A stretch of 63,509 nt of DNA, filler included, from Atractiella rhizophila (lineage: Eukaryota), in NCBI GenBank assembly GCA_021432655.1. It is 4 parts of 3 records of this genome, joined end to end, with 100 filler letters (N's around TTAATTAATTAA, not from the genome) between each part and the next. Parts side by side here need not be neighbours in the genome. Positions count along the whole stretch, not along the records: positions 51,573 to 63,509 come from MU271760.1; 3 more parts are not named here. One strand, 5' to 3'. A program made the translations under genes and the position numbers. Each line of letters begins with the position of its first letter. The first letter of the stretch is position 1. Below the pieces are notes generated by a model. That model was not told the DNA's origin and made no database searches. It worked only from the letters and a program-made list of their open reading frames with translations. Below are positions 1,096 through 63,300 of the stretch, one piece after another.

Positions 1096-4000
1096 ATGCT
1101 CTTCTCCTCGCCCTACGCCACCACGACGCCCCACTCGACCTCCACCCACTCCCTCCACGTCCACACCACCCTACCCTCCCACCCACACACCCGCCAATCC
1201 TCCCGTTCCTCCGCCTCCTCCTCCTCTCCACCCTCACTCCCATCGTCCTCCTCCTCCCCGCACTTCCTCACTTCCGCCGCCGCACCTGGCTTGAACCCAG
1301 CAGCAGAGGTCACACATCCGCGGAGAAGCAAGGAAGACTATTCGACCAAGAGGGCGAGGGTTCAGAGTTCGCCGTATGCTTTGTCAGGAGGAAGTGGAGG
1401 TGGAGGGAGGGAGAGGGAGGGCAGTAGGGACGGGACGGCAGGCGTAGTGGAAGGGGAGTTGGGAAACATGCGGCTCGGGAGTACCGACGAGGGGACGGGA
1501 AGAGAAGAAGAGTGGGGAGCGGTTGGCGTCGGCGGTGGAGTGATGATGCCTGCCATGTCTCCCATGCCAACGATGAGCGGGCCGGGAGAGATTCGCGCGA
1601 TCGTTGGACCCGGTGGAATGCATGGATTCGCTCCTACGAATGGGATCAACGGAATCAATGGCATCAATGGGATACAAGCGATGGGTGCGGTGCAAGGGAT
1701 GGGGGGGATACAGACGATGGGAGGGATGCAAGCCATGGGAGGGATGGGAATGAGCTTCGGAGCTATGCCAGTGTACGACCCCTATTCGAACCCCTACCTC
1801 CAACAGCAACAACAACATCAACACCACCAGCAACAACAGCACCAACAACAACAGCCGCAACTCGCTCCATCCCCTTCCCCCTTCCTCCACCCCCTCCACC
1901 AAGCCCACACACCAAGTGCGCACCCGTCCCCCTCCTCTCTCCTCCCCACTCCTCCCCTCTCCGCACTCGCCAACGCCGTCCGAACCGCGCTCACGACCTC
2001 AGCGCAAGACCGAGCGCGCCATCAATTCGTGCAAGTGTGGCTCACATCGTCCTACACCGTCTGGACCGAAGGCAATGTTTCCCGTCAGGGATTGTACGGC
2101 AGCTATTTGCGCACGTGCGAGCGATGGGGAGTGAAGGCCATCAACTCGGCGTCGTTTGGGAAAGCGGTCAGACAGGCTTTTCCGTCCATTAAGACCAGGA
2201 GACTCGGTGTGAGAGGGAACAGCAAGTATCATTATTGTGGTATTAGACCCGCGAATCAGTCCGAGGCCGAAACGCTGGCGCTGTTGAGTAGAGATGGGGC
2301 AGCGGAGGAGGGGACGGAGAAGGCCACCACGGAGGAGAGCGCAGAAGATGAAGAGGATAGAGATAGATTGCCCGTCGGCGTTAGGGGCGGATTGACCTTA
2401 CCGTTACCCGCTGGAGGTTCTGGTGCAGGTAGTGCAGTGGGAGGAGGAGGAAGTGGGATTGCAGCCGGGATGAATTTACCGCAGACACCGATGACAGCCA
2501 GACCATCTGTGAGCCAACAACAACAGCAGCAGGGAATGGGACAACAACCGCGGTTGAGGAGGAGGAACGAGGCCGGAATGCTGTGTGTGCACATCAAAGG
2601 TGTCGAGAAGGTCCTGTCCGAGTTCCCCGTACTCGCTTCCTCTTCTTCCACCACCAACAACACCTCTTCGAATACAACTTCCAATTCTGGGGTAGACATC
2701 GACCTCGACGTCGACATCAAAGACGAACACAATGGATCTGTTACAAATTTGAAACCAGAAGATGGAGGATCGGCTGCATCGGTGAGGAGGGAGGAGGAGA
2801 GCGTATGGGAACTGGTGATGGAACACTGTGGATCCTTGGTCGAGTGCGCGAGCGAGTTGAGGTTCGATCAGTTCGAGATGTCCATCAGGAGCTTCTGGGG
2901 AGGTCTGAGCGAGAGGGAGAGGGAGATCGTAGCTGACACGGCTGGTGGAGTCGTCAATGAGATTTATCGTGGTGACGCTGTCGTGTTCAATGTAGGTTTT
3001 CACTCCAGTCTTCTACAAAGATCTGCGAGATGACATTGATGCTTTTTCTTAGGAAATCTTGGAGCTCTTGCACAATCAAACCCTCACACCGTTACCCGTT
3101 CAGGTCTTCGTCACTCTCCGACAGCTCGCGGAGAACATGGAGCAGATCATCATCCAATCACTCGTCGGCTTCCCTCAGTCTTTCATCGGCCCAAAAATAG
3201 AACTCGCTGCAAGGTTCGGAGTGAGTGACCTTTTCTTCTTGAGAAGCACAAACGCTGATGAAATGCAGCATCTCATCGTTCGACACCTCGGCATTTGCCA
3301 GCTGACACAGTCCTTGAATGGACTGCTTGATAATCCTTTGAACGTCCGACAAATGGCGGAAGCGTGGGAGGTCGTGGATTTCGAAACTGTGAGGAACCAG
3401 GCTGCTTTGGTCACTAACGTTCGTCCTTGGCCTCATTTCATCATTTGAATGGAAGAGATTAACGGATGGCTCAGTGTCAGCATGACCTCCTTACCTCCTG
3501 CTTCAACGATTTCCGAATCCTCCTTCACTCAAACCACACCATCTCTATACCTGATTTAATCCTCTACCTCGAAACCATCTACGAGCGTTGCCTCCGCCCT
3601 CCAGTTCCCCCACAACCCACACCGTCCCCAGACGCACCACAAGGCATCTCCCCCCGTTCTCTCCTCGTCCGTTGGTCCTACGTCTCCTCCCAGATCATGC
3701 GAGACCTCACCCTCAAGTCCTCGCCCGCATTCGGGAGCTTCCAAATCCTCTCGCTCTTCTGCGAAGAATGGCTTGGCCTCAAAGTCCTCCGACGAGTCGC
3801 CTTGCAGATCTCAGCCATAGAACCTCCTGCCACCGTCCAACAACCTCCAACGAGCTTACCAACAAAACAACAAGCCTTCGTCCCCCCTCCACTCAACCTC
3901 TCTTCCCCCGGAGATTTCCTCAACTTCTCCTCGCCGTCCTCCCAACCACTCTTCTCGCCCACCACCCAAGCGGTCATCGATTCGGCAAATGCTTCCGCGT

Positions 4001-4218
4001 CGCTGGGTGGTATCGGTATCGGAGGTATGATGCCGATGGACAGCTTCGGGTTCGGATTAGAGGGATCGAACGAACTGTTGGGCATTGGTGGAGGGATGGA
4101 CCTGTCTTCGCTCGGCGTGGGTGGAATGGGATTGGACTTCGGATTGGGCGTCACACCGTCGACGGAGGCGAAGAGCCCGATGGGAGGACAGAATCAAGAA
4201 GAGGAGAAGAAAGCGTAG
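1096..4218 (+). CDS. RFX1: RFX-family winged-helix transcription factor (Sak1/Rfx1-like)
   Basis: RFX DNA-binding domain ~2014-2250 (VWLTSSY..NVSRQGLYGSYLRTC..INSASFGKAVRQAFPSIKTRRLGVRGNSKYHYCGIRP). C-terminal helical region has a DLTLKSSPAFGSFQIL motif typical of the RFX dimerisation domain. Introns at 2992-3052, 3221-3268 and 3419-3474. An acceptor at 1091 suggests an upstream intron, so the start is uncertain. Confidence 0.92.
1801..1860 (+). repeat. CAA/CAG-rich polyQ/His tract in the RFX coding region
   Basis: caacagcaacaacaacatcaacaccaccagcaacaacagcaccaacaacaacag encodes QQQQQHQHHQQQQHQQQQ. GIN and MGG repeats precede it at ~1640-1755. Confidence 0.9.
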
Positions 4219-4676
4219 ACCATGTTGGTTTGATTTGATGGATGGATGGTCGATTAAAGGATATGCTTCGAAATTCTGGTCATCTAGTTGTTTGTGATTC
4301 GTGCTTGCTTTGAGAACTGGTTGTCTACCCTTGAACTCTCATCGTTTCTGTCCCCTTTACCCTTCACATTATCTATGAATCCAGCAAGGAAGGAGGAAGT
4401 GCTTTCGTTATACCTCTCGAGCAGAGATTACCCCACATAGCCTAGGGACCACGCAATACTTTTTTTCACATTTCGAATAAGACGACAAGTTAACGCAGAC
4501 ATTGACTGCTCGTTCTTCAAAATCAAATATTCGTTCGCTGCTGTGTAGTTGTGCTACCCATATCCTTCTTAGGAAGAAGTCAAATAATCTCAGTACCCTC
4601 ACTTACGCCCCTCCTCATTCTCCTATTCTTCGTCGATTTGGAAGGAGGTCAGGACAAGTTGTATTTTTTGCCCCTT

Positions 4677-6559
4677 TTACCCAGATTGCTTGCAAAATGG
4701 ACGATTGCTGTTCAAACATTTCATTCCACTGCACTGGTACCAATAGTAGAAAGGGAGAGAAAGGAAAGGTAGGATTGCTGAGTATACCACAGCTTGTCCT
4801 CATGCCAAACCATCCACCTCGGGGCTTCCTCAACCTCTCGGGAGTGGACGAGCACACCAGAACGAGCTTCCCATATCCTAAGTACGCGGTCACTTCCAAC
4901 TACATGTCAGTCAATCACTGCGACGGAGACGTTAGAAGAGAGAGAACAAACTGGTCGTGAGATACGGAATCGAGAGAAAAGAAGGAGTGAAGACATCACA
5001 TGGGTGGGACATGTAAGAGGACGTGTGCTCTGGATAGAGCACGATTGGACGATTTGGAAAACGGAGGTCATACAGCGCGGCGTAACTTGAAGTATTCGTA
5101 AATCTCATTGACTTGAGAGGTATAAAACACACCTGTCCATTCCAAGTACCGCGACTTCCCTCTCACTCTTCTCTCTCTCTATCCACCGCACGCCATACAC
5201 CCCTATTTGAGCTTTCCAACTTGGGCCCTACGCCCACGCGATTTTAGCACTTTTCCTATGTCGGAAAAGCAAAGCACGAACCGTGGGTCTAGATGAAGAA
5301 ACTCGGATGTCGATTCCTTTCACCTCCCCCTTCCTTGTCCCAACAAGGATAAGCTCTTCTCTCCAATCAACGCTCCAAACTGCCCCTCCTCCTCCTTTCC
5401 CTCCGGTCCTCACAACACTCCATGCGGTTCGGTTACCAAATTCCCCTTCCCTCGTCCAGAAGTGGACCGCCGCATCAGTACCTGCTTTCCCTATCAAAGA
5501 CTAATTCACTTCTATGGTGGTGACGGGGAGACGAACCTACCGCACCTCTCCCGTCCCGGAGAACCGAGCACCAACCTGTAGTGCGTTCAAGGGTTCTCCT
5601 AACTCGTCGTCAGTTTCATCCACCGCATGTAAGAAAAAGCTCCACGCTTGAGTGATCTCCATGCCTGTGTCTGAGTTTGTTGTGCAGAGGACGACTGGGA
5701 CACTTGATACGGATGTGGGATCAAGTGTACCACCTCGAGACGTTATTCTAGATCAAAGGAACAGTTATTTCTGAGCATGATGGCTGGAGTTTGTAAGGGC
5801 GGACAGCATCAAATTTCTTTCGCAGTGAACCATCATCTAAAGTGTGTGAGCACGCGACTTGCATGCAGTGAAGGAAGGACTCACAGAATCTGAACGACGG
5901 ACAAAGTTATAAAGCGGAAGCTTTGTGGTCGGCACTTTCATTTTGCTTGTACTGCCATTCCGACGCTTGGGAATGAACCAGGCACTGGTCAGAGGCATTT
6001 GTCAAGCGGGTCCAGTTCTGATACGTTCAAAGGGACCGACCTAAGCTCCCCGTTCACGTCGCCTACTCTGGCTACGTTGTTTGACTTCCCCAAGGCAGCA
6101 TCAGGCATAAAGGCGAAACTGGATATTGTCGCGACATCTGTGCTGGCACGAGGTGAAATCTTTGTTTCGATCCAGAGATGCTGTGGATCTGGATTGGAAA
6201 AGAAACAAGAGCGTCCTCCTGCTCTGTACATAGAATGATTAAGCAAATGTGGTGAGGACAGTGGGACAGGCTTACTGTTGCATTTTTTGACTGTTGGAAT
6301 AAACATTATTAGAAGCTGAAGCAGCACGCCGTTCTAACATCCGGTATACACCTTCCACTCGAAGTTTTCTCTCTACTCTTGGAGCTGCACTTTGACCATT
6401 TTGCTCTGGAGATGCAATATGGCGATGAGATGGCAGTTTGGATTGATACAGTGCTTTTCCTGATGGCAAGACTGCTTGAAGCGAACTGGAAGATGGATTG
6501 GGAGCCTTGAAATATCGTTGCGTCGCCTCATCGTAAACGTACCCTGGAATATGGCGCAT
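4677..6559 (-). CDS. WD40-repeat protein, DCAF4/WDR21-like (multi-exon)
   Basis: N-terminal MRHIPGYVYDEATQRYFK motif resembles the DCAF4/WDR21 family. WD-like exons: AVWSVDWREELILVGTRKGEVKGIDIR, AALYDLRF (DxR-like) and GSDRVLRIWEARSG. Exon structure is only partly resolved. Confidence 0.7.
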
Positions 6560-27318: not shown

Positions 27319-27418
27319 NNNNNNNNNNNNNNNNNNNNNNNNNNNNNNNNNNNNNNNNNNNNTTAATTAATTAANNNNNNNNNNNNNNNNNNNNNNNNNN
27401 NNNNNNNNNNNNNNNNNN
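27319..27418. other. Assembly gap with six-frame-stop linker
   Basis: N44-TTAATTAATTAA-N44. Confidence 0.98.
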
Positions 27419-33495: not shown

Positions 33496-35383
33496 ATGAC
33501 GATGGCATTCACTTCCATTCCCGTGCTTTCCCTTCTCACTCCCCGGCACGATCTCGTCCCTTCCCTCCGTGCAGCATGCACTGAAGTTGGATTCTTTTAT
33601 CTTGCCCTTGAAGGTACTGGAGTAAAGCCAGATTTGGTGGAAAGGATGTGGGATGTGTCCCGAAAGTACTTTGATCTACCGCTTGATCTTAAGGATGTCA
33701 GTCTTCCTTTCTGTATTCAACTCGAAAGGTTATTGAACTGTTTCTTGAAAATGATGTACAGGTTGGTATCTCAGAAAAATTCAAGGGATACACGCCTCTT
33801 TTAGGAGAGAATGTAGATCCATCAAATAGTAAAGGGGACCTACACGAAGCTTTTGACATTGTACGTCTCCCCTTCAGTTCTCTTGCTAGAAAACACACAC
33901 TGAAAGATAGAGAAAGGGAACAGATAAATCAGGCAATCGGTGCGGTTCTCCTTGCCTCCACAATAAGAGAACATGCTGAACGAAACAATTGAACCTGAAG
34001 TTGGCCTGACGAACTCAAAGTTTTCGGTGAAGAGATCGGGTTCCGTAAAACATTGGAGGAGTATTGGTTCGTTTTCTCTCTCTTCCCTGCTTCTTTCCGA
34101 TAGGTTTTTTGATGAGAACATACGTGGGAATGTGCAGGGAGGCAATGATCTCTCTCGGGCGTCAGCTCTTTCCTCTTCTCGCGCTGTCTCTCGACCTGTT
34201 TGTCCACACCTCCTTTTTTTTTGCGAATGGGAGGAATATCGACAATCGGATGGCGGGGAAGGAACGAAGATTGGTTTGACGATAAATTAACGCATCCAGC
34301 CTGCGTGATGCGCATCCTGTTCGTCATCCTTTTTCTTTCTTCCCTTCTTTAACATGACCCCATCTTTATAGGCACTATCCGCCTCAACCTCCCGCCTCCA
34401 CCTCCCTTGGTATCGGCGCGCAGTGCGTCTTCTTCTCCCTCGTTACTCTTCACAGATGAGAATGGTTTGTCAATGCAGCACCGACTACGAAACTCTCACC
34501 ATCCTCCTGCCTGACCCTACTCCAGCTTTACAGCTTCTGAACAAGAGAGGGAAATGGATCGACGCTCCCAGTAAAGAAGGCTGTGTGGTCGTCAATTTGG
34601 GGGATACCTTAGCCATGTGGACCAGTCTGTCTCCCTTTCCCTTCTTCCACTATACCACAGGGGGAACTGCTTTCAAAGTCATCGCTGCTTGAATGAATGC
34701 TGATCGTAGATGCGTTTGGGAATGGGATAGATGATGTGTACGTGTCGACCGTACATCGTGCTATCAACCTATCGGGGAAAGCAAGGTACAGCGTGCCTTT
34801 CTTTTACGGAGCCAACGAAGACGCCGTCATCTCTGTTCGTCCATCTTCTTTCGTCTTCACATCCATGCGTCATAAGCTGATATTCGAATTGCGAAATGGA
34901 TCGACGCTCCCAGTAAAGAAGGCTGTGTGGTCGTCAATTTGGGGGATACCTTAGCCATGTGGACCAGTCTGTCTCCCTTTCCCTTCTTCCACTATACCAC
35001 AGGGGGAACTGCTTTCAAAGTCATCGCTGCTTGAATGAATGCTGATCGTAGATGCGTTTGGGAATGGGATAGATGATGTGTACGTGTCGACTGTACATCG
35101 TGCTATCAACCTATCGGGGAAAGGAAGGTACAGCGTGCCTTTCTTTTACGGAGCCAACGAAGACGCCGTCATCTCTGTTCGTCCATCTTCTTTCGTCTTC
35201 ACATCCATGCGTCATAAGCTGATATTCGAATTGCGACAGACTATACCAAGCTGCATCAGTGAGGAAAGACCGAAAAAATATCCGGACATCAAGCAAGGCG
35301 AATACGTTTTGAAGAGACTTGGAGATACGTATCAGAACGTTCTTCCCACTGACAGTACAGGCGATGATATATCCAAGAAATAA
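33496..35383 (+). CDS. 2-oxoglutarate/Fe(II)-dependent dioxygenase (IPNS/DIOX family) with an internal tandem duplication
   Basis: IPVLSL..AACTEVGFFYL, FKGYTP..GDLHEAFD, HYPPQ, GAH|TDY (HxD split by an intron), VVNLGD and STVHRA..RYSVPFF (distal His and RxS). Confidence 0.9.
34551..35234 (+). repeat. Tandem direct repeat, 2 x 342 bp
   Basis: 34551-34892 matches 34893-35234. Two differences seen: C34750/T35092 and C34782/G35124. Confidence 0.95.
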
Positions 35384-35575: not shown

Positions 35576-37917
35576 CTACTCCTCGATCTCCAACACAGCA
35601 ACCACCATCCGATGGTCGCTAATCCTCCACTGACTCTTCGTCTTCTTCCCCTTCCCCTCCCCGTCCTCAGACACAAGACTGTCGACGATCCCGAACCGTT
35701 TCACGCCCCACTTCGGCTTCTCTTTCTGCTCCTTCCGTTCCGCATCTCGCTGCGGAGTGGATGATGGAGGAGGTTTGGCGGAAACGACGCCGTTGTCTGC
35801 GACCATGACGAAGTCGATCACCTTCCATTCTGCGTCCTTCTCTATCCCAAAGCCGGTGAACGTATGTTGATCCCCCAGCGGACGCGACATGTTCTCACCT
35901 ACACCGACAACAACCACGAATATAAGTAACACTATAAGGTTTGTGGGAGAGGAACAAACGTACCACCATCAGGAGAGAGAGGGACCTCATGTCTCGCATC
36001 AATAAACTTCAATCCTTCCACATCCTTTACCTCCTTCGGATGTCCCTTCAAGCTCCCAACATATTTATTGCCCGTAAGGACTCTATACCCTTCCTCCTCC
36101 TCCACACTATTCAAATCGCCAACAAAAAGAACGAGCGCGTCTCCCTGAGCGGCTATTTTCTCGCGTATCATCTTCCCGCTCTCGTACCGCGCGACGATGC
36201 CGAGGTGGTCAAAGTGAGTGTTCATGACCACGATCGGAGGAGAGGAGGGAGAGAGGAGGTCTCGGAGGCGGATGAGGTTGCACATTCGCGTCAGTTGCTG
36301 TATCGTCCTTTCCCGTTAGTGTGCTCCCTAGGCAAGCGAGAAGAGGACGATGCGTACAGCGTCCCAGCCCTTCGACCCTGGAATGTGAGGTGTCGGCGAG
36401 AGCCAAAAATACTCTGGCTCCCCGACGAGCTCGAATCGGTCCCTGTGGACGTAGATGGTTGAGTATTGAGAAAGAAGAGAAGGGAGACGACGAACCGACG
36501 CCAGAAGATGGGGACGTATTCCCCTGCTTTCTTCCCATCGTTCCTTCCCACCCCTCGCCAATCATATTCTGCTCCAAGCAAGCTTGACAAATCCTCGACT
36601 TGTGGGTGCAGTGGTTCCTACACGTCACCACAAGCGCCCAAAGGCAAATACATCAACACGAAGCTCTCCACCTCTGCCACCTCTAAAGGGCTAAAGGGTA
36701 AGGAAAGAGCGTACCTGAAACCCAATGATGTCGGGACTTTCCCACTTCACCTGATCCGTAAGCGAGAGCCGTCTTTCGCACCAGCTCTTCTCCAATCCTT
36801 CGCTCTTCACAAACATCTTCTTCGCCGCCTGCACATACAGCGGTTGTGCCTTTGGATCGTACCGCACATTGTAGCTAGCGACCTTCAACGACCTCTTGAC
36901 CATTGTCACAGGATCTTCGTCGCCTCCTCCAATCGGTATTTGGTGTGGCGGACGGTGTGGTTGTCGTTGGGATAGAGAACACGGAGAGAGGGGGACGGAA
37001 TGGCAGGGCGAGGGAGGGGTGCGGGTGAGGAAGTGGATGAGGATGAGTAGGGAGAGGGGAAGAAGCGCGTGCAGGGGAGCGAGACGGAGCGCCAGTGTGA
37101 TCGAGCGAAAGGCAAATACATCAACACGAAGCTCTCCACCTCTGCCACCTCTAAAGGGCTAAAGGGTAAGGAAAGAGCGTACCTGAAACCCAATGATGTC
37201 GGGACTTTCCCACTTCACCTGATCCGTAAGCGAGAGCCGTCTTTCGCACCAGCTCTTCTCCAATCCTTCGCTCTTCACAAACATCTTCTTCGCCGCCTGC
37301 ACATACAGCGGTTGTGCCTTTGGATCGTACCGCACATTGTAGCTAGCGACCTTCAACGACCTCTTGACCATTGTCACAGGATCTTCGTCGCCTCCTCCAA
37401 TCGGTATTTGGTGTGGCGGACGGTGTGGTTGTCGTTGGGATAGAGAACACGGAGAGAGGGGGACGGAATGGCAGGGCGAGGGAGGGGTGCGGGTGAGGAA
37501 GTGGATGAGGATGAGTAGGGAGAGGGGAAGAAGCGCGTGCAGGGGAGCGAGACGGAGCGCCAGTGTGATCGAGCGTTGTTTTGTCAGCCAATGAAAGCGC
37601 AGGAGCCTCTTCAGATTCTTCGAGATATTTTTCGTCTTCGTCGTCGTGGTTGTCCCACTGCTGCTGTACACTGGAAGCTCCGATGTTTCGTCACCATTAA
37701 TATCTGCTGCGTGCGGCTCCTCTGTTTCGGGACTATTGGACGAGCATGACGAGGATGAGGGACCAGCTTCACAGTCGTACTCGCAGTCGTCGAGCAATGC
37801 CACGTCTTCTTCCCCCTGCGTGAGTTTCCGCTTGCCTCTCCCGTCTGAGTCGCTCCTATCCATGAAAGGGATCCAACCGCGCACGTTCTCCAGCACGCTC
37901 GCACGTTTCGCTCTCAT
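35576..37917 (-). CDS. Endonuclease/exonuclease/phosphatase (EEP) family protein with an N-terminal TM segment
   Basis: KVASYNVRYD, DIIGFQ|E, GVGRNDGKKAGEYVPIF, FWLSPTPHIPGSKGWDA, NTHFDH, GDLNS, IDFVMV and SDHRMVVA. Confidence 0.9.
36640..37575. repeat. Tandem direct repeat, 2 x 468 bp
   Basis: 36640-37107 matches 37108-37575 with no differences noticed. Duplicated peptides are visible in the ORF track. Confidence 0.95.
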
Positions 37918-38954: not shown

Positions 38955-39857
38955 CTACTCTTCCTTTCCCTTCACAGCTTCTACGCTTCGTCCCGCATTC
39001 TCCCACCGTTCATTCCGTCCCGCATCTCTTCCAGGGACATATAGAACGCTCTTCCCACCAGGCGTCAAGTGCTGGATAAGATCGGAAGAGAAGGATTGGA
39101 GGCCGATTTGGAATGTGGGAGACGTGGTGAGGTGGAAGAAGAGGAGATACACGAGGTAAGAGACTGCGAGGGAGGANNNNNNNNNNNNNNNNNNNNNNNN
39201 NNNNNNNNNNNNNNNNNNNNTTAATTAATTAANNNNNNNNNNNNNNNNNNNNNNNNNNNNNNNNNNNNNNNNNNNNGAAGAGAAGGATTGGAGGCCGATT
39301 TGGAATGTGGGAGACGTGGTGAGGTGGAAGAAGAGGAGATACACGAGGTAAGAGACTGCGAGGGAGGAGGCGAGGAGGAAAGCGAGGAGGGACAGTAAGC
39401 TGAGGACGAGGATGAGAACGAAAGCTAGATCGATCGTCGGCCATGCATTCATTAGTATAATGAAGAGGAGACGAACATATAGCGCTAATCCATAGGGAGC
39501 TGACGATGATGGCCCAACCCGAAAGAGAGAGCGGTGATGAGCAAGCTTAGGGAAAGGAAGATGAAGAGCGGGACGATGGCGAGAGAGAGGAAGATGACGC
39601 TGAAGGTGGATGTGAGCGGATAATGGATGAATGCCGCTTTTGTCAATGCGGTCAAAGGGGGAAGGTAGTGTTCTTGAATACTGTGCGCGTCGCCATCCCC
39701 AACCCAGTGAATTCCCGTATTCGTGAAGTGAGCAACAGAAAGTAAGGAAAACTGACTATTGACGCCGCTCCGCAATGTACCCCTTCGCAGAATAAATCGT
39801 GTCCTGTGCATTGGTTAGGAGCGTATTGGCTCCATTCGAGACTTGGGTCGAATCCAT
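38955..39857 (-). CDS. Small hydrophobic-hairpin membrane protein, promethin/LDAF1-like
   Basis: Spliced MDSTQVSNG..ERRQY|IQEHYLPPL..YPLTSTFSVIFLSLAIVPLFIFLSLSLLITALSFGL..AFVLILVLSLLSLLAFLLASSLAVSYLVYLLFF. The family call is by resemblance only. Confidence 0.5.
39177..39276. other. Assembly gap linker; the flanking contigs overlap by 92 nt
   Basis: Same linker as at 27319. 39085-39176 is repeated at 39277-39368. Confidence 0.97.
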
Positions 39858-45410: not shown

Positions 45411-47173
45411 ATGTTGCGGCTTGTACCACGAAGAGTTGCATATTTGAGGAAGGAGTTTAACGCCAGGAATGCTGTTCGAGGTACGTTTTTCTCAGTTTTG
45501 GTGTGCACATGGGAGAGGGCGTTCCTTTGAAAGGGACCGCTAGCCTTGCCAGCTTCTGGTTTGCATTGCCCCAACGAAACAGTATGCTGATGCACACGTA
45601 TTACTTTGCACCACAGGCTTCCACTCTTCACAAGGCGCCATGGCGCTGTCAAAATTCTCTATGCCGTCCATGTCGCCTACGATGACGGAAGGTGGCATTT
45701 CGCAATGGAAGAAGAAGGAGGGAGAGTCATTCACTGCTGGTGATGTTCTGCTCGAAATTGAGACGGACAAGGCCACAATGGATGTTGAGGCCCAGGATGA
45801 CGGCGTCGTCGCGAAGATCATCGTGAGCGTCTCCTGTTCGAGCGTAAATGGGAATATACTTAATTTGAACTTGGAATGTGGAATAGGTGGATGGAGGAGC
45901 CAAGAATGTTCAAGTTGGTTCTGCTATTGCCATTTTGGCTGAGGAGGGCGACGAAATCAACGCGTCAGAGGTCGACGCTCTCGTCAAAGAAGCCAAGTCA
46001 TCGGCGCCATCTTCTTCCGAGGCACCAAAAAAGGAGGAGGCTCCTCCGGCACCAGAGCCTGAGAAGCCTTCACCTTCAAAAGCAGAGTCAGCTCCCTCCC
46101 AACCTGCTCCATCGACCTCCGACAAGCCCGCCGACCGAATTTTTGCTTCTCCAGTGGCCAGGAAGATCGCTCAGGAGAAAGGAATCCCCCTTTCGCAAGT
46201 CAAGGGAACCGGACCGAACGGCCGTATAATTAAGGAGGATGTCGTGAACTTCAAGCCTTCGGCTACATCTCCTTCTGCCGCTGCCGCGGCACCCAAGTCT
46301 GCACCTGCTCCTCCTCCAGCCGCCCCGGCAGATACATACGTCGACATTCCCCTCAGTGGAATGCGCAAGGTTATCGCCCAAAGGCTATCGGAGTCTATGC
46401 AGTCCACACCGCACTATTACCTAACGGCAGAGATCAAGATGGACCGCATCATCAAGCTTAGGGAGGTCTTTAACAATGCGGCGAAGGAAGCTGGCGAGGG
46501 AAAGAAGAAGGAGGGAGTGCAAGGAGGGCTCAAGCTCTCTGTCAATGACTTCATTGTTAAAGGTGCAGCTTTGGCCCTCCAAGATGTCCCCGAGGTCAAT
46601 TCAGCATGGTATGGTGACTTCATCCGACAGTAAGTGGCGTCTTGCATTCTCACTTGGATGAAAAGATGAACCTTTCCATTGCAGGCACAAGAAAGTCGAC
46701 ATTTCTATGGCCGTTGCTACACCCACTGGTCTCATCACTCCCATCATCACGGACGTCGGCTCCAAAGGTCTCTCCACTATCTCCTCTCTGTCGAAATCTC
46801 TGGCCGTCAAAGCTCGGGAAGGGAAGCTCCAGCAGCACGAATATCAGGGTGGAACATTTACGATTTCGAACCTTGGAATGTTCGGCAGTATTTCCCACTT
46901 CACCGCTATCATCAACCCTCCGTCCAGTTGTATCCTTGCCATCGGTGAGACTGAGCGAAAGGTGGTTGAAGCAGAAGATGAGCCGAGCGGATTCAAGGCT
47001 ATCAGTGTGATGAAAGTCACAATGAGCTGTGATCATAGGGTTGTCGATGGCGCTGTGGGAGCACGGTGGATGAAGTCATTCAAAGATTACATGGAGAACG
47101 TATGTCATTTCTGCGTATGATCTCCTCCAAGTCAACTGACACCTCGAACTAGCCATTCACCTTCATACTATAA
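45411..47173 (+). CDS. LAT1: Pyruvate dehydrogenase E2, dihydrolipoamide acetyltransferase
   Basis: Arg-rich presequence, lipoyl domain [18 protein letters not shown]3-binding [22 protein letters not shown], and catalytic [11 protein letters not shown] and DHRVVDG. Confidence 0.97.
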
Positions 47174-51472: not shown

Positions 51473-51572
51473 NNNNNNNNNNNNNNNNNNNNNNNNNNNN
51501 NNNNNNNNNNNNNNNNTTAATTAATTAANNNNNNNNNNNNNNNNNNNNNNNNNNNNNNNNNNNNNNNNNNNN
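51473..51572. other. Assembly gap linker
   Basis: N44-TTAATTAATTAA-N44; it cuts off the 5' end of the retrotransposon. Confidence 0.98.
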
Positions 51573-51574
51573 AT

Positions 51575-53347
51575 GAGAGGATCGAAGTCCCTCAACCGAG
51601 AATCAACATCACGAACCCCAACGACCCAGCACGAACGATCATTACCCCCTACAGCGCATCTAATTTCCGCAAGCAACTAAAGAAGTATAATCTCCTAAAC
51701 GAATTCCAACACGTCGTGCACGGCATCCGAAATGGCTTCAACGTCGGCATTGCGACACTACCTGAACTACATACATTCACCCCACCCAACACCCCAGTCG
51801 ACGATGCCAGGAAGCGTTTCATCCATGGCTACATCCAGGAGGAGAACGCCAAGAAGAGGAACTTTGGGCCCTACAACCGGGAGGAAGTCTCCGAAATATT
51901 TGGGGGCAAGGGCTGGAGGTCGAATCCGCTCAATGCCGTCCCAAAGGCCGGTGCCATGGACGAATTTAGGCTCATAGAGAACGCCTCCAGAGGGGGTCTA
52001 GACGAATCCGGAGAAGACTGGCCCTCGGTAAACGACCTCATCGACTCTGACGACTTTCCCACAGAATGGACTGCCTTCTCACAGGCGCTCCTCGACTTTG
52101 CACAGCTCCCGAAAGACGCCGAAGCAATGACCATCGACATAGCGGAAGCCTTCAAAACCATCCCTCTCGACGAAGAGTCAAGGCGGGCCTTCGTCATACA
52201 GGACTACAACGGCAACTTCTGGATCAACGTGGTAGGATCGTTCGGAACCTCATCCCTACCAGGGGTATTCGGCAGTGTAGACGATGCTTGGGTAGCCATA
52301 GCCAGGAAAAAGAGGTGGAAGAAGATCTGGAAGTGGGTAGACGACCACGAAGTAATCCGGTCGAAATCACTCAAGATCTGGGGAACAGAGGAAGACTTCT
52401 TCAGCGACCTCGACGGCCTAAGGATACCATGGCACCTCAAGAAATGTGCGAAGTTCTCTCACCTCGTCAAGTTCATCGGCTTCGTTTGGGACTTCCGCGA
52501 ACACACCATTTCACTCCCGAGAGAAAAATTCATCAGAACACTCCTCACGGTCCAAACGTGGCTCCAACCGAACTTCAGAGCGACCTTAGCGGAAGCCACC
52601 CACCTCCACGGCTACCTCCAACATGTCGCCTTCGTCATGTTCCAGTGCAAGCCATATCTCACGAATCTCATAAACTTCATCGCCTCGTTCCCACACGCCT
52701 TAGGGGAAGAAAATCCCTGGCTCCTCAAGCGCGGTACACTACATCTCCCCAAAGGAGTCCGGAAAGATCTTCTCTACTGGCACGAACAACTAACGAAGGG
52801 ACCACCCATCCGCAAAGTCACCAGACTCGACAAACCAGTCTCATTAACCTGGTTCGGAGACGCCTCCCTGGCGTACGGCATAGCGGTCCAGATCCACGAA
52901 CACTGGAGCGTCTGGACTTGGACAGAAACCACCAAAGAGGAAAGGAAGATAGGCTGGGGTGAAATGCTAGCCGTAGAACTAGGGGTACTCCTACTCGAAT
53001 GGCTCCTGAGCAGGAACAGAATCACTCTCAAGAAGGACCATCGAGCCGTCATAGTCAACACGGACAACCAGGGAGTCGAAGGAATCCTCCGTAAGTGGCG
53101 AGCAAGGAACCACGAACAAAACCAGTCACTCAAGAGATTGAGCGAAGTTACACAACGACTCGACGTTACCCTAGTACCCACATGGATCCCTTCCGAAGAG
53201 AACCCAGCGGACCGACCCTCAAGAGGCTCCTTTTCTCATCTCAAATACCAACTTTTCGTCTCCATACCAGTTCCACAACCAGTATCCAAGTTCATTATAA
53301 GCCACTCTAATCCTTCTTCCCTTCCAGTACCTAGTACTTTAGCATAG
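51575..53347 (+). CDS. Reverse transcriptase-RNase H of the YR retrotransposon
   Basis: Frame is open from the gap (IITPY..GF). RT motifs: NPLNAVPK, FRLI, SVND, DIAEAFKTIP, SFGTSSLPGVF, WVDD, FIGFVW. DIRS-type RNase H: FGDAS, GEMLAV, TDNQGV, WIPSEENPADRPSRG. Confidence 0.95.
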   Translation, partial: ERIEVPQPRINITNPNDPARTIITPYSASNFRKQLKKYNLLNEFQHVVHGIRNGFNVGIATLPELHTFTPPNTPVDDARKRFIHGYIQEENAKKRNFGPYNREEVSEIFGGKGWRSNPLNAVPKAGAMDEFRLIENASRGGLDESGEDWPSVNDLIDSDDFPTEWTAFSQALLDFAQLPKDAEAMTIDIAEAFKTIPLDEESRRAFVIQDYNGNFWINVVGSFGTSSLPGVFGSVDDAWVAIARKKRWKKIWKWVDDHEVIRSKSLKIWGTEEDFFSDLDGLRIPWHLKKCAKFSHLVKFIGFVWDFREHTISLPREKFIRTLLTVQTWLQPNFRATLAEATHLHGYLQHVAFVMFQCKPYLTNLINFIASFPHALGEENPWLLKRGTLHLPKGVRKDLLYWHEQLTKGPPIRKVTRLDKPVSLTWFGDASLAYGIAVQIHEHWSVWTWTETTKEERKIGWGEMLAVELGVLLLEWLLSRNRITLKKDHRAVIVNTDNQGVEGILRKWRARNHEQNQSLKRLSEVTQRLDVTLVPTWIPSEENPADRPSRGSFSHLKYQLFVSIPVPQPVSKFIISHSNPSSLPVPSTLA

Positions 53348-53359
53348 CAATCACATTAA

Positions 53360-54954
53360 ATGTATCTATCAGACATAGCATCAACATTCAATCATTCAAT
53401 TCACAAGTGTAGACTGAGACCTCCAAGAGCGAGGAAAGCAAATAGGCACGTGCAAGTGAAACCCATCTTCGAAACCACCATGAACAATAAACGGAAGGCA
53501 AGCAACTCTAAACGCAAACCCAAGGAACGTGGCCCTTGGAGAGCAAAAAGGCCTAATCCTCCACCATGGAGAACGCGAGAAGAATTAGACAGAGACCTCA
53601 CAGCCTACGAGACCTTCGCTAGGCAGAATGCCTCATTCAACCAAGAGTTGGAGGATAGGTTCATCCCTTGCCGAGCTGGAGATCGACTACGCTTATGGCG
53701 CGGCGTCGACAACTTCTCCCATCTCCTCCTCGACATGCCCGTATTCAGAGCCATAGCATACGCCGCAAACGAGACCTCCCTCACCGAATCCACCTGGAAC
53801 TCTTACGGCTCGGCACTGGCCAAATGGAACGATTTCTGCAACAAGTTTTGCATACCCTTCGAGGACAGATTTCCCATCAAATCCCAACAACACCTCGTAT
53901 CCTTCTGCCTCTGGGCAACGGGCCCTCCGGATATCTACCCTCAGGCGTTCCGCCCCCTCACAACCATTGGCACCCAAACCCTCGAGAACTACATCAGTTC
54001 ACTCAGATCATGGCATGATCTGCACGGTGCCCCATGGCCCGGGGAGAAGGATAAGCCCGTAGTCTTAACGAAATGGTTGCGAGGAATAAGCAATATCATG
54101 GGTCAATCGCACAAAAAAGAGTAAGCAATTCCAACCCAAAGTCACAGACTCACGTTCCTGTCAGACCGCGAGCACCTGTCTCCCAAGAGATGATGGTGTC
54201 CCTGGAACGGAATCTGGATCTCTCAAACCCTTTTGACGCTTGCGTTTGGGCTGCCGCCGTCACAGGGCTGTACGGGCTCTGCAGACTCGGCGAACTCTTA
54301 CCGAAATCGAAACCATCGTTCTCACCCAAAACGCACATGACGCGGGACAAAATTTTCCCAGAATTCGACTTAGAAGGTCTCCCTTACATCCGCCTCCGCC
54401 TGCCAAAAGACAAAGTGTCCAAAGGGACACCAGTTGACATCAGCATCCCGCAAGCGAGAATAGGGAACACACTCTCGCTCGAAGCGATTCTCAACCACCT
54501 CCGCATCAACTGCGTGCTTAGCGACTCAGACCCATTGTTCGCCTACTGGTCCCAAAAGGAACACACCATTCTCCCGCTCACGAAAAGAGCCTTCCTGGAT
54601 AGATGCAAGAACATATGGTCTCAGGACACGGAAGTATCACGAGGCATTGACAACGTGTCGGGCCATAGCTTCAGAATTGGCGGCGCAAGCAGACTGTGGG
54701 CTCTCAAGGTAGGTATAGAATTCATAATGATGGCGGGCAGATGGAAATCAATCTCCTGGGAACTCTACATCAGAATGAAGGCGCAGGTCGTGGTAAACGA
54801 GATAACCCACCGCGGCTTCGAGGCCATGAATAACCGCCAACACTCAGACATCCATGAACATGAGTTCAGTCAACCGAAAAGAGGCAAACCAGTTGCCAAA
54901 GCCGCTCCTCGTCGCGGTGTGGTGGTCGGTACAGCATCAGGACGAAACGGCTAG
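53360..54954 (+). CDS. Tyrosine recombinase, two exons (intron 54121-54164)
   Basis: Exon 1 encodes the core-binding domain (TWNSYGSALAKWNDFC..TLENYISSLRSWHDLHG). Exon 2 has the catalytic R (CRLGE), K (PKDK), HxxR (GHSFRIGG), W (GRW) and Y (ELY). The start could be 53360 or 53480. Confidence 0.92.
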
Positions 54955-56370
54955 TTTCTCCTCCTGTTAGGACTTCGGAACTGCTTTTGGGGTGAGCCTT
55001 TCGTCTTGCTTACCACCTCGTTTGGGGTCCTTTCAAAGCTCACAAGCTCTCGTTGGCTCGCAGAACCCTCGCAAGCCAAACCTCAACGCGTGAGCCTAGA
55101 AACCAAACACAACCACGGAGCAGTTTGAACACCTGAGTGCTCAGAGCGTTGGCAATATAGAAAATGCGTTCGAATTTCATATAGACCTCGACTCACAACT
55201 TCGAACGCACTCCCAGTCAGAGCGATACCAGAACTGGATCAGCGTGCTTGGATGTCAGGCTGAATAAGTTGATGTGGAAGCCGTAAACGCATGAACTGAG
55301 GGAAAGCAGGACTAACGGGCATGACATGACAGGTGCGACTCGTCTTAATATAGTTATGGGAGAGGGCAAAGTGAACAGTGATGTTTCGCGAACTTCTGAA
55401 ACATTTTTGAGAAATCTCTTTGCCAACTTCGTGACATGAGCGTGCTCTCCCCTTTTGAATACGTCTAAGCTGCGCCAGGAACATACTGCGAAGGCCAGCC
55501 TCAAAACACAGCTAAATTGATTACAGAGATCTAAATTGCTAAATTGCAGAGTGAAGCGTCGACCTGATGGCATCCTTGTCTGTTTGTGGTAAACCTGTGT
55601 ATCGTTCACATCAGCCATGTTACGTTGGAGATCATTATCGAACAACTGTGCATGCAATATCTCTTCATGCATCTCATTCTATTTTACAAACGGCAAGGAG
55701 CATGTTCGTGACCCTTCCGCTAGTGTGAATAGAGGTGCTGACATGAAAGTGGATGAATGACAAGCTCCTTAGTTGTCTCTTTTGGTAAATCGAAATGGAA
55801 TCAGTGGATGTCCCCATTGGTCAAGACTCGGAACTTTGAGCATTCAAACTATTTGTATAAGTCCGGTAGATTGATCTCTTGAGAAATAAGCGACACTCTC
55901 TTATTCCAGGCTACAACTTGGGATAAGGACGCAATTCGCAGTCTGAAACATTTCACGTGATGAAAATCTTACCTGCATCTTTTGGTGTCTTGACCATTGT
56001 TCCCGTTCCTCTAGTTGCCTGTCTTCCAATTCCCTCTGCGAGATTCTCATGTCGTCCCACTTTATCGAACTCAAAATTCAGAAGTCGTTCGAGGCGACAG
56101 TGTTTGGATGAGGCGACGAGATGGATGATGGCCACGGCTGCGTCTGGAAGCTGTCAGGGCATATCAACTCACGTAGTCATACAGCGAGGTGCAGCAGCTT
56201 GAAAGAGAACAGTATGCACTAGCCCATCATGATCCGACTACTATCCCCGTGGATTATATGCGGACCTTGCTTCTCCGTATTCTGTTAGTGGAGTAGGACG
56301 AGTGAAGCGGTCTGCGTTCATACTATCAGGCCATCCCTTATGAGGCCATGGCTATGCCTGGCAGATACAA

Positions 56371-60366: not shown

Positions 60367-63300
60367 TTACCGGTCCCTCTTCAAACCCGCTGGCTCCTGC
60401 TCCTTTCCTCCATCTACGATCACCCCTAGGCCCCCATCACCTCCCACCTGATCATCATGCTCCTTCACATCGAGCTTCTTCGCCTCCTCCAACTGCCTCT
60501 TCCGGTCCAACAACGGAACACCCTTAATCACCTCCTTGACTTCCTCCAATGAAAGCGTTTCGTATTCTACCAGGGCGTTGGCTAAGCGATCTAGCTCGAC
60601 GCGATGCTTCTCAAGCAGTTCGTACGCTTTTGTCTGTTGGTCCTCGATGATATCCCGGACTTCGCTTTCGATCAGGGCTCTAGTTTGAGGAGATATCGAA
60701 GCATCGTCTTTCTCCAGATGGACCGGTCCTAGAGCATCCGAAAATCCAAAATGGCGAACCATGGTGTGAGCGACGTGCGAGGCATTGCGAATATCAGATG
60801 AGGCCCCATCGGTTATGTTCTCCTTTCCGTAGAGAAGCTTCTCCGCCGACCGTCCTCCCATTGCCATCTGGATTCGCGCAAGGTACTCGACGTGACTACG
60901 GTTCATCTTATCCATCAAAGGGAGAGAGGATGTGACACCCAAAGCACGACCACGGGGCATGACCGTCACTTGATGGAGAGGATCGCAGTGTTCATTGAAG
61001 AGAGCGACAAGGGCATGGCCGCCCTCATGGTAGGCAGTTGCGAGTTTGTTCTCTGGGGTGATGACTGCACTTCTCCGTTCAGCTCCCATCAAAATCTACC
61101 ACAGTGTCTTTGTCAGTTCTCACTTCACTCGATCAAAGATGAACGTACCTTATCCCTTGCCCAATTCATGTGTCGAAGTGTAACCATTTCTTGATCATCC
61201 ACCGCCGCTTTGATTGCAGCTTGATTGACAAGATTCTGCAATTCCGCACCTGAAAATCCAATCGTTCCGCGAGCGACGGTGGAAAGGTCTACAGAACGAT
61301 CGTACTTGATAGTTTTCAAATGGTGTTTGAGAATGTTAAGTCGACCTCGCACGTCGGGAAGAGGGACGACGACCTCTTTGTCGAAGCGACCGGGACGAGT
61401 TAAAGCTTTATCCAGCATCTCGGGAAAGTTGGTTGCACCCTGTTGTCATCCGATGTCATCCATTTTTCTCTATCAAGAGAGAAAGAGAAAACAAACAATA
61501 ATAATGATCCCTTCAGTCTGATTGAACCCGTCAAGCTCGACCAACAACTGATTGAGCGTCTGCTTAGAGTGTTGTTGATCCCTCGGATTCCTTCTTGATC
61601 CGATAGCATCCAATTCATCGATGAAGACTATGGCAGGTGAGTTGGCACGAGCCTGTTTAAAGAGCTCCCTGATCCTTGCAGCTCCAACACCGACGAAGAT
61701 TTCATCGAATTCAGCACCACTAGCGAAGAAGAACTGGACACCAGCTTCTCCTGCAACCGCACGAGCAAGAAGAGTCTTTCCGGTTCCTATGATCGCGAAC
61801 GACTTTCAGTACCTCCTATGCGAAGAAAATTATGGGATGACGAACCAGGAGGTCCAATAAGCAAACAGCCCTTGGGCATCTTCCCTCCTAACTTAGTAAA
61901 TCGTACAGGGTTCTTCAAGAATTCCACAATCTCCACCAACTCTTCCTTCGCTTCTTCACATCCATGTACGTCCTCAAAGGTAGTAGTGCTCTTCCCGTTA
62001 GGTTGATGCTTTGATGGGGCCTGAGTAGCAAACCCGCGAGCGCCAGCCGCTCCGCCAGCAACGTTGAATTTGAAGTGTTCCATCATCCAACTCATCAACG
62101 TGATGCCCTGTAATGACCGTCACACTTCATTAGGACAGACATAAAGTGAGAGCGTGGGACGAACAGCAACAGTGACGACCGTAACAACTCCCAAAAAGCG
62201 AAAGATGCGAAAGGTGGTTGATCCCTTGTCTATACGCACACAAACAACATGTCAGCACAGACATCCTTTCTTGTCTTTATAGTGACTGTGACAGCCACGT
62301 AGAAAACGTACTCTCTTCGATCACGAGTTTAAAGTCGTTAATTCCCGTTCCTGGCGCCTTTCCAGGATTTGAAAAGCTCCAGAATCCACTCCCACTACTA
62401 GCTGCAGCACTCGCACCGGCGCTGGCCTTTTCGCCACCTCCCGTACCCAGTCGTTGCCCCAGTCCTGCCCAATTCGCCTGCTCTGCCAACCTAGGTTTCT
62501 TCCTCGACAGCGCCGCCTTGAGGATCTCTCTCTTGGCAAGCTCGGGGTCGACCGCCGTGCTCGCACCTTCGGAAGCAGAGGGGAGAGGAGTCGAAACTGG
62601 TTGGACGCCATGGTGTGCGAGGATAGAGTCTCGTCGCTTCGATGCGAGGGAAATGACTTCGGAGGACGAGACGGAGGTTTTGGCGAGAAGGAGGGCGCGG
62701 AGGTAGAAATTGAACGCTTCGTCGCTCCTTAAAACCTCGCTCAGTTCCGGCACACTCTCGTTCGCGACCCCATTCGCATCAGTAGTGACCTCTCCGAACC
62801 CCTCCCAGATCTTTGTAAGCTCTTCATACCTCTCTACTAACTCGACAGCATACGCCTCTCGCGTTTCCCCGTCCAAAGAAACCGTCTTAGGATCGTCACC
62901 AATGAGTGCGCGGAAGTAGGAGAGGTGGGGTGAAACGTCGGAGGACGAGGAAAGGACTTCTTTCGAACGGAGAGCGAGCGAACGGATGTAAGACTCGAAG
63001 ACGGTTGACTCTACGTTGCGGAAGAGGGCACGGATGGGAAGAGAGGTGTGGAGGTGGCGGGACCGCGGGGGCGAAGAAGTGGCAAGACTTGGCAAGGCGG
63101 AGGTTCGTATTGAAAAGTGGCGAGCTGCAAAAATGTGTTATTCTATTTCTTTGCAAATGTGAGATACCATAGAGCTATCATCGAGAAACTCTGCCCAGGT
63201 AATGCACAAGAAAGTTTACGATCTTGCTGACCAAAAACTGCATTGATGTTGAATGTGCAGCTCTGAACAAATCGCTGCATCGTGCCAGCGAACAGTCCTC

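Follow-up and report, generated by a model that had tools for sequence, protein, structure and literature searches.

Elements that are copied through RNA are expected to lose introns lying on their sense strand, because a spliced transcript possessing both ends is equal to the unspliced one as a template. The stretch of DNA analysed in this work (hereafter the window, i.e. 63,509 nucleotides from Atractiella rhizophila) raises the question of how a retrotransposon could nevertheless keep an intron inside the gene of its own tyrosine recombinase (YR). This gene lies in two frames, with a 44-nt segment of the form GTAAGC...CTCAC...CAG between them (54121-54164). We confirmed that the segment separates the two YR frames, as first described, and we consider it very probably a genuine U2-type (GT-AG) intron, located in the linker of a Cre-like YR that belongs to a multicopy family of Ngaro-like retrotransposons. 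The original prediction had claimed that the YR gene of an RT-YR retrotransposon harbours a GT-AG intron in sense orientation, and on this point the splice signals, the collinearity with homologous proteins, the gene models and one contig of a public run (X3) agree.

The window is made of four assembly pieces joined by spacers of the form N44-TTAATTAATTAA-N44 (27319-27418, 39177-39276 and 51473-51572); since the spacers join separate pieces, no feature is to be read across them. The second spacer is flanked by two identical 92-nt sequences (39085-39176 and 39277-39368), which look like the overlapping ends of two assembly pieces and not a biological repeat. Two pairs of 300-nt direct repeats (34551-35192 and 36640-37407, 99-100 % identity, spacing of 342 and 468 nt, respectively) may correspond to a repetitive gene or to a tandem duplication.

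The piece that carries the YR gene starts at 51573, inside the ORF encoding reverse transcriptase (RT) and RNase H (RH) on the plus strand (51575..53347, stop TAG at 53345-53347, with another in-frame stop, TAA, at 53357-53359). The third spacer cuts this ORF, and as the piece begins inside it, the 5' part of the element is missing from the window copy; the sequence before 51573, where a gag-like ORF would be expected ahead of the RT, comes from another assembly piece. Pfam returned only weak RVT_1 and viral-polymerase matches for the RT/RNase H ORF and no methyltransferase family in the element. Both ORFs share a strand, RT/RNase H coming first, and no further domain separates RH from YR. Terminal repeats and Ngaro-type split direct repeats were found neither around the window copy, whose 5' end is cut off, nor downstream of the YR; lacking both its 5' end and detected terminal repeats, this copy may be incomplete. 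With RT/RNase H followed by YR, the element is a Ngaro-like YR retrotransposon. Ngaro elements are described as having RT/RH then YR without a methyltransferase domain, and as occurring in Pucciniomycotina and Agaricomycotina (PMC3783388, PMC13465315). The YR is here a separate ORF behind two stops, as opposed to the fused RT-RH-YR ORF of a distant relative (L010, see below).

The two frames meet in a precise manner at the 44-nt segment. Frame one (53360-54124) ends with the residues IMGQSHKKE at a TAA stop (54122-54124) located inside the intron donor. Frame two (54055-54954), which is shifted by -1, reads VRPRAPVSQEMM, carries PRAPVSQEMM and stops at 54952-54954. On the nucleotide level, 54110-54126 reads CAC AAA AAA GA/GTAAGC and 54157-54171 reads CCTGTCAG/A CCG CGA, the intron itself (54121-54164) being GTAAGCAATTCC...ACTCACGTTCCTGTCAG. 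It comprises a GTAAGC donor (54121-54126), directly preceded by a run of six A (54113..54118), a branch-like CTCAC motif (54149-54153) whose A (54152) lies 12 nt from the intron 3' end, and a CAG acceptor (54162-54164). Excision of this phase-2 intron from the plus strand fuses GA/A into a codon for E, followed by PRAPV. The gene is thereby divided into exon 1 (53480..54120, plus strand), encoding a basic N-terminal tail and a helical core-binding-like domain, and exon 2 (54165..54954, plus strand, stop TAG at 54952-54954), encoding the catalytic domain with its R, K, HxxR, W and Y residues. Exon 1 starts, like the gene models, at ATG 53480, and another in-frame ATG lies upstream of it at 53360. 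That the donor itself supplies the stop of the unspliced product was correctly noted at the outset; a TAA stop in the donor is automatic for any phase-2 intron beginning with GTAA.

The intron-like pattern GTAAGY..CTNAY..YAG had seven matches on both strands of the 63.5-kb window, as compared with 3.2 +/- 2 in shuffled sequences, and a match at the exact nucleotides needed to join the gene halves goes far beyond chance. Right after the YR stop, the minus strand bears an intron-like match of its own (54951-55013, GTAAGC..CTCAC..CAG/TAG), and a minus-strand ORF of 153 aa without any Pfam family lies at 55217-55678; these may represent an antisense feature or chance.

Genes of the host present in the window provided a reference for these signals. 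They include a 2-oxoacid dehydrogenase E2 gene (45640-47100, plus strand) and, downstream of the element where host genes start by about 60.3 kb, a first gene encoding a Peptidase_M41/FtsH-like AAA protease (60367-62119, minus strand), the introns of both being part of the reference. GTAAGC and GTAAGT donors were also found among the host intron candidates, and the CTCAC motif is also present in the host intron 46631-46684. Five host introns checked by hand measured 53, 54, 57, 59 and 65 nt, and in this small sample the 44-nt YR intron is the shortest candidate of the window, the nine other heuristic candidates spanning 52-119 nt.

Comparison with homologous proteins placed the junction within a conserved context. 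The spliced reading SHKKE/PRAPVS aligned without any gap with KRTRP/PRPPAT, RRPKRPPVT and their equivalents in all of the full-length homologues (9/9), which bears out the claim that removal of 54121-54164 joins the two ORFs exactly (HKKE/PRAPV), and R131 and P133, located just past the junction, are nearly invariant in the 29-sequence alignment. Six gene models on six contigs were retrieved for Atractiella rhizophila: four of them (P0039, P0004, P0042 and P0043) contain HKKEPRAPV, while P0005 reads TTKKTPVS and P0040 reads HKKD/HMKAQ at this place. The spliced product of the window is 100 % identical to one A. rhizophila gene model, it being understood that gene models are predictions and that a protein sequence alone cannot show an intron at its locus. 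A second protein search, carried out with an N-terminal model, returned the same three clusters and nothing further.

The original prediction had called for reads across 54120^54165, and one contig of the public runs contains exactly this junction. An 847-nt contig of run X3, with a depth of 74.6, joins 54120 to 54165 (54055-54120 + 54165-54945, i.e. 66 + 781 nt), the skipped segment being 44 nt long with GT..AG ends, and the intron was uncovered by any contig of this run. The bin depths of X3 are reproduced exactly by contigs ending at 54120 and resuming at 54165, i.e. 46.3 = (74.6+40.2) x 23/57 for one of the bins flanking the intron and 61.5 = 74.6 x 47/57 for the second. As X3 may be an RNA or a DNA library, the joined contig is a spliced transcript in the first case and an intron-less copy in the second; if DNA, it could be the product of precise splicing followed by reverse transcription, or it could come from a lineage that was never interrupted. 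We infer that the joined form in X3 is RNA. Run X1 yielded 137 contigs of the family, with depths in the thousands, and in these the intron is covered, e.g. by record 5 at 54080-54363; the 54120^54165 joint was absent from these 137 contigs, which include variants known from the annotated genome. Contigs give no ratio of spliced to unspliced forms. Runs X4 and X5, both guessed to be RNA, provided six and two contigs, respectively (depth 2-6), with 53984-54154 uncovered. The match of one X4 contig begins exactly at 54165 behind five unmatched letters, which fits spliced RNA and is too short to count.

The dual reading of X3 leaves room for another explanation, in which the 44 nt would be a never-spliced insertion in a dead subfamily, the X3 contig would be DNA of uninterrupted, ancestral or active copies and the gene models would bridge a defect. 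We regard this explanation as unlikely. It draws on the possible DNA nature of X3, on possible differences in contigs obtained from other organisms or strains, and on the length of the segment, shorter than every other intron candidate of the window. Against it, X1 has intron-bearing contigs and no joined one among 137, and a random insert would very improbably carry GTAAGC, CTCAC and CAG together with a frame restored to the nucleotide. The family copies and the distant relatives, considered below, bear on the same alternative.

Several copies of the family could be told apart. Record 5 of X1 (54080-54363) differs from the window copy at 30 positions and has a 1-nt deletion at 54109; this deletion, combined with the same donor and an acceptor located 8 nt downstream (after 54172), would explain the TTKKTPVS of P0005. 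Another X1 contig joins 54145 to 54775, which corresponds to a 629-nt internal deletion removing most of the catalytic domain. The D-H-M-K-A of P0040 would then be GA/T CAC ATG AAG GCG read across the 54145-54775 deletion, and the deletion copy appears to be annotated publicly as the 274-aa P0040 by means of an implausibly short 21-nt 'intron'. Should these readings of P0005 and P0040 be right, the intron or its 5' portion would be found in three copies or more (the window copy, X1 record 5 and the 54145-54775 deletion copy), which are up to about 10 % diverged. That several diverged copies possess the intron implies that it is older than their divergence and was passed on as the family multiplied, and since it belongs to the heritable sequence of the family, the RNA that is reverse-transcribed must usually be unspliced. 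The copies diverge from each other between about 53385 and 53480, with identical loose ends at 53384 and 53481 in X1 and X3.

Differences between copies were then considered in the predicted exon frames, using the 40 best supported of the 220 differences between the window and other contigs, which are not assignable to intron-bearing or intron-less copies. As many as 25 of these 40 are synonymous, for an expectation of 10.8 +/- 2.7, and random re-placement of the same base changes reached 25 synonymous differences in none of 5000 trials. Such an excess indicates that both halves of the YR evolved as protein-coding DNA in their respective frames, and at the level of sequence comparison it shows purifying selection in both exon frames. 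A dead subfamily with an inert insertion fits poorly with this result, the intron-bearing copies being about 10 % diverged and the coding differences yet mostly synonymous.

Relatives of the element were sought in metagenome contigs using a closer family alignment (A2). The scan returned 69 loci with a YR sharing 27-51 % identity over its best segment, i.e. distant relatives only, with no close copy of the window element among these contigs. An RT homologous to that of the window was found on the strand of the YR in 38 of the 69 loci, upstream of it in 35 and downstream in three. In these three (L002, L017 and L018), the YR is followed on its own strand, 2-3 kb further on, by the RT, an arrangement which suggests head-to-tail tandem copies of the element. 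The Ngaro signature is seen in L010, whose split repeats are arranged as A1 1-94 ... B1 4722-4822 - A2 4881-4974 - B2 5219-5319 (1-94 = 4881-4974 and 4722-4822 = 5219-5319) and which has a single continuous RT-RH-YR ORF (1409-4648).

The homologous junction (+/-15 residues) is crossed in one frame by a single tblastn match in 54 of the 69 loci. The other 15 consist of contig-end cuts, gap-free frameshifts (L037 and L039), C-terminal fragments or loci where homology starts near the junction, and in none of these 15 are the N- and C-terminal matches separated by a gap of intron size. At L041:1-218 and L044:1-787, YR homology begins within a few residues of the point corresponding to the intron, and no N-terminal domain was detected upstream; these loci may be truncated copies or may mark a recombination-prone point. 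As for whether other copies would keep the intron or run through in one ORF, a question raised with the original prediction, intron sequence was retained in diverged copies of the family, whereas 54 of the 69 distant relatives were continuous. The uninterrupted state of the relatives, which can also be cited for a never-spliced insertion, together with the intron of the Atractiella family, makes this intron lineage-specific. Judging from these alignments, it would most simply have been gained in the Atractiella family, the alternative being its loss in all the others.

A different way of joining the two frames, or of having split them, involves the A6 run at 54113-54118, i.e. -1 ribosomal frameshifting or an indel, the GT..AG ends then being coincidental. 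Frame two, in the -1 frame, is indeed open from 54055 through the 44 nt, and the six A precede the break. Reading through the segment would however insert RVSNSNPKSQTHVPVR, about 16 residues absent from all nine full-length homologues; in the zero frame the run reads C AAA AAA G, which departs from the canonical X XXY YYZ heptamer; the following 92 nt are no more stably folded than shuffled sequences (z 0.14, 108 of 200 shuffles equalling or exceeding them), leaving no stimulatory RNA structure; and the X3 contig shows the exact removal of 44 nt. The indel or frameshift that had been named beforehand as the refutation of the intron thus received no support, and we judge it very improbable. Scarcely credible, finally, is a domesticated, no longer mobile YR-derived host gene that acquired its intron after immobilisation, which would suit the missing 5' end and the lack of detectable terminal repeats of the window copy but conflicts with a multicopy family (six gene models on six contigs, 137 X1 contigs with depths in the thousands), with the RT/RNase H ORF directly upstream and with the presence of deletion derivatives and frameshifted copies, usual for transposon families, a domesticated single-copy gene being excluded by the copy number and the adjacent RT.

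Under the preferred reading, i.e. a spliceosomal intron, the spliced protein is modelled as a Cre-like two-domain tyrosine recombinase. Pfam did not recognise the YR in single window ORFs and matched single family sequences weakly (Phage_integrase in 2/14). By sequence, the family profile matched Cre with an E-value of 5.6e-7, the N-terminal part aligning with Cre 33-121 and the segment HxxR..W..Y with Cre 283-328. The structure was predicted for P0042, the spliced 391-aa gene model from another copy (mean pLDDT 83.5, pTM 0.72), and comprises five N-terminal helices (2-126), an unstructured stretch (127-135) and an alpha/beta catalytic domain. The best Foldseek matches of this model were Cre recombinase (E 1e-10, TM 0.58-0.72, about 344 columns). 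In the predicted structure, the junction E129/P130 falls inside the stretch 127-135, i.e. in the interdomain linker. The catalytic residues R169, K212, H296, R299, W322 and Y330, all encoded by exon 2, do not vary among the 29 sequences aligned.

It follows from the location of the junction in the linker and of all catalytic residues in exon 2 that the unspliced frame would encode the basic tail and the core-binding-like domain and nothing catalytic. Two further points of the original prediction agree with this anatomy: the full recombinase needs splicing, the catalytic residues being all in exon 2 and frame one stopping in the donor, and the unspliced frame corresponds, as coding potential and according to the structural model (E129/P130 in the linker), to an N-terminal domain without catalysis. 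This potential amounts, from the YR start, to about 214 residues up to the donor TAA.

These features outline a division of labour between two RNA forms. Only spliced RNA can yield full-length recombinase. Reverse transcription would usually start from unspliced RNA as template, the recombinase being drawn from the spliced pool, and translation of unspliced RNA from the YR start, should it occur, would end at the donor TAA. A candidate reason for which spliced RNA would not spawn intron-less copies is that it may be a 3' subgenomic transcript; alternatively, it may be short-lived, the upstream ORFs terminating far ahead of the exon junction; or the intron may persist because the unspliced product has a function. 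The persistence of the intron in diverged copies under coding selection raises the question of what bars spliced RNA from reverse transcription in a YR retrotransposon.

A stronger proposal would make the intron a built-in gate: only RNA retaining it would be reverse-transcribed and this RNA would encode a dead inhibitor, host splicing setting the ratio of inhibitor to enzyme. The catalytically dead core-binding-domain protein would then compete with the recombinase or poison its tetramers, the spliced pool giving active recombinase. We find this proposal rather unlikely. If true, host splicing would control copy number and a P-element-like logic would have evolved independently in a retrotransposon. 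Whatever the fate of the unspliced product, an ORF-based annotation of transposons would score intron-bearing copies as frameshifted or dead, and the intron offers a natural marker separating translated RNA from template RNA in the Atractiella family. The replication of YR retrotransposons is poorly understood. Among the literature searched, DIRS-1 is the subject of the one experimental study of such elements (PMC7192593).

An earlier statement that introns had been reported in YR genes of fungal YR retrotransposons found no counterpart in the literature searched. This literature, whose scope leaves aside the original Ngaro and DIRS papers and later reviews, contained no account of introns in DIRS or Ngaro YR genes, so that a prior mention is possible. 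The terms 'intron' and 'splic' are absent from two surveys of YR retrotransposons, devoted to fungi (PMC3783388) and to DIRS1-like elements (PMC3266345). The YR genes of Cryptons, by comparison, are described as commonly containing introns (PMC13465315). Cryptons being DNA transposons, the keeping of introns is no puzzle there.

Known systems share some of these features. The original prediction pointed to P elements. In Drosophila, P-element RNA that retains the third intron encodes a shortened protein, which still has the DNA-binding portion but not the catalytic one. The P element is, however, a DNA transposon whose splicing is regulated by tissue and whose repressor has been demonstrated, whereas the truncated product of the Atractiella element is a prediction from coding potential. 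Ogre is a plant LTR element with a DDE integrase and an intron between protease and RT. Like the Atractiella family, Ogre (Ty3/gypsy, legumes) keeps a sense-strand spliceosomal intron of the coding region in its genomic copies, and removal of this intron is needed for the downstream part; in contrast, the Atractiella element is fungal and of the YR type, and its intron splits the recombinase itself at the interdomain linker. Ogre is described as splicing between ORFs, and splicing of retrotransposon RNA is listed for BARE1, copia, Ogre, CRR and env-type gypsy elements (PMC3735527). BARE1 has a small alternative intron of 104 nt, and its spliced and unspliced pools differ in role (PMC3735527). 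In BARE1 and copia, as here, a small intron alters the protein that can be expressed from a nearly full-length retrotransposon RNA, with the difference that splicing of BARE1 abolishes pol and leaves only Gag, while in the Atractiella element splicing creates the full enzyme and retention truncates it. Intron retention is qualified as 'highly unusual among retroelements' and as typical of Penelope-like elements (PMC8557442). The latter, like the present family, retain introns in genomic copies; they belong to a different class, with a GIY-YIG endonuclease and a telomerase-like RT, and their best-studied introns are located in the 5' UTR or pLTR rather than within the gene equivalent to an integrase. 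The intron of the YR gene is rare for elements copied through RNA, yet precedented, as the comparison with Ogre, BARE1 and Penelope shows.
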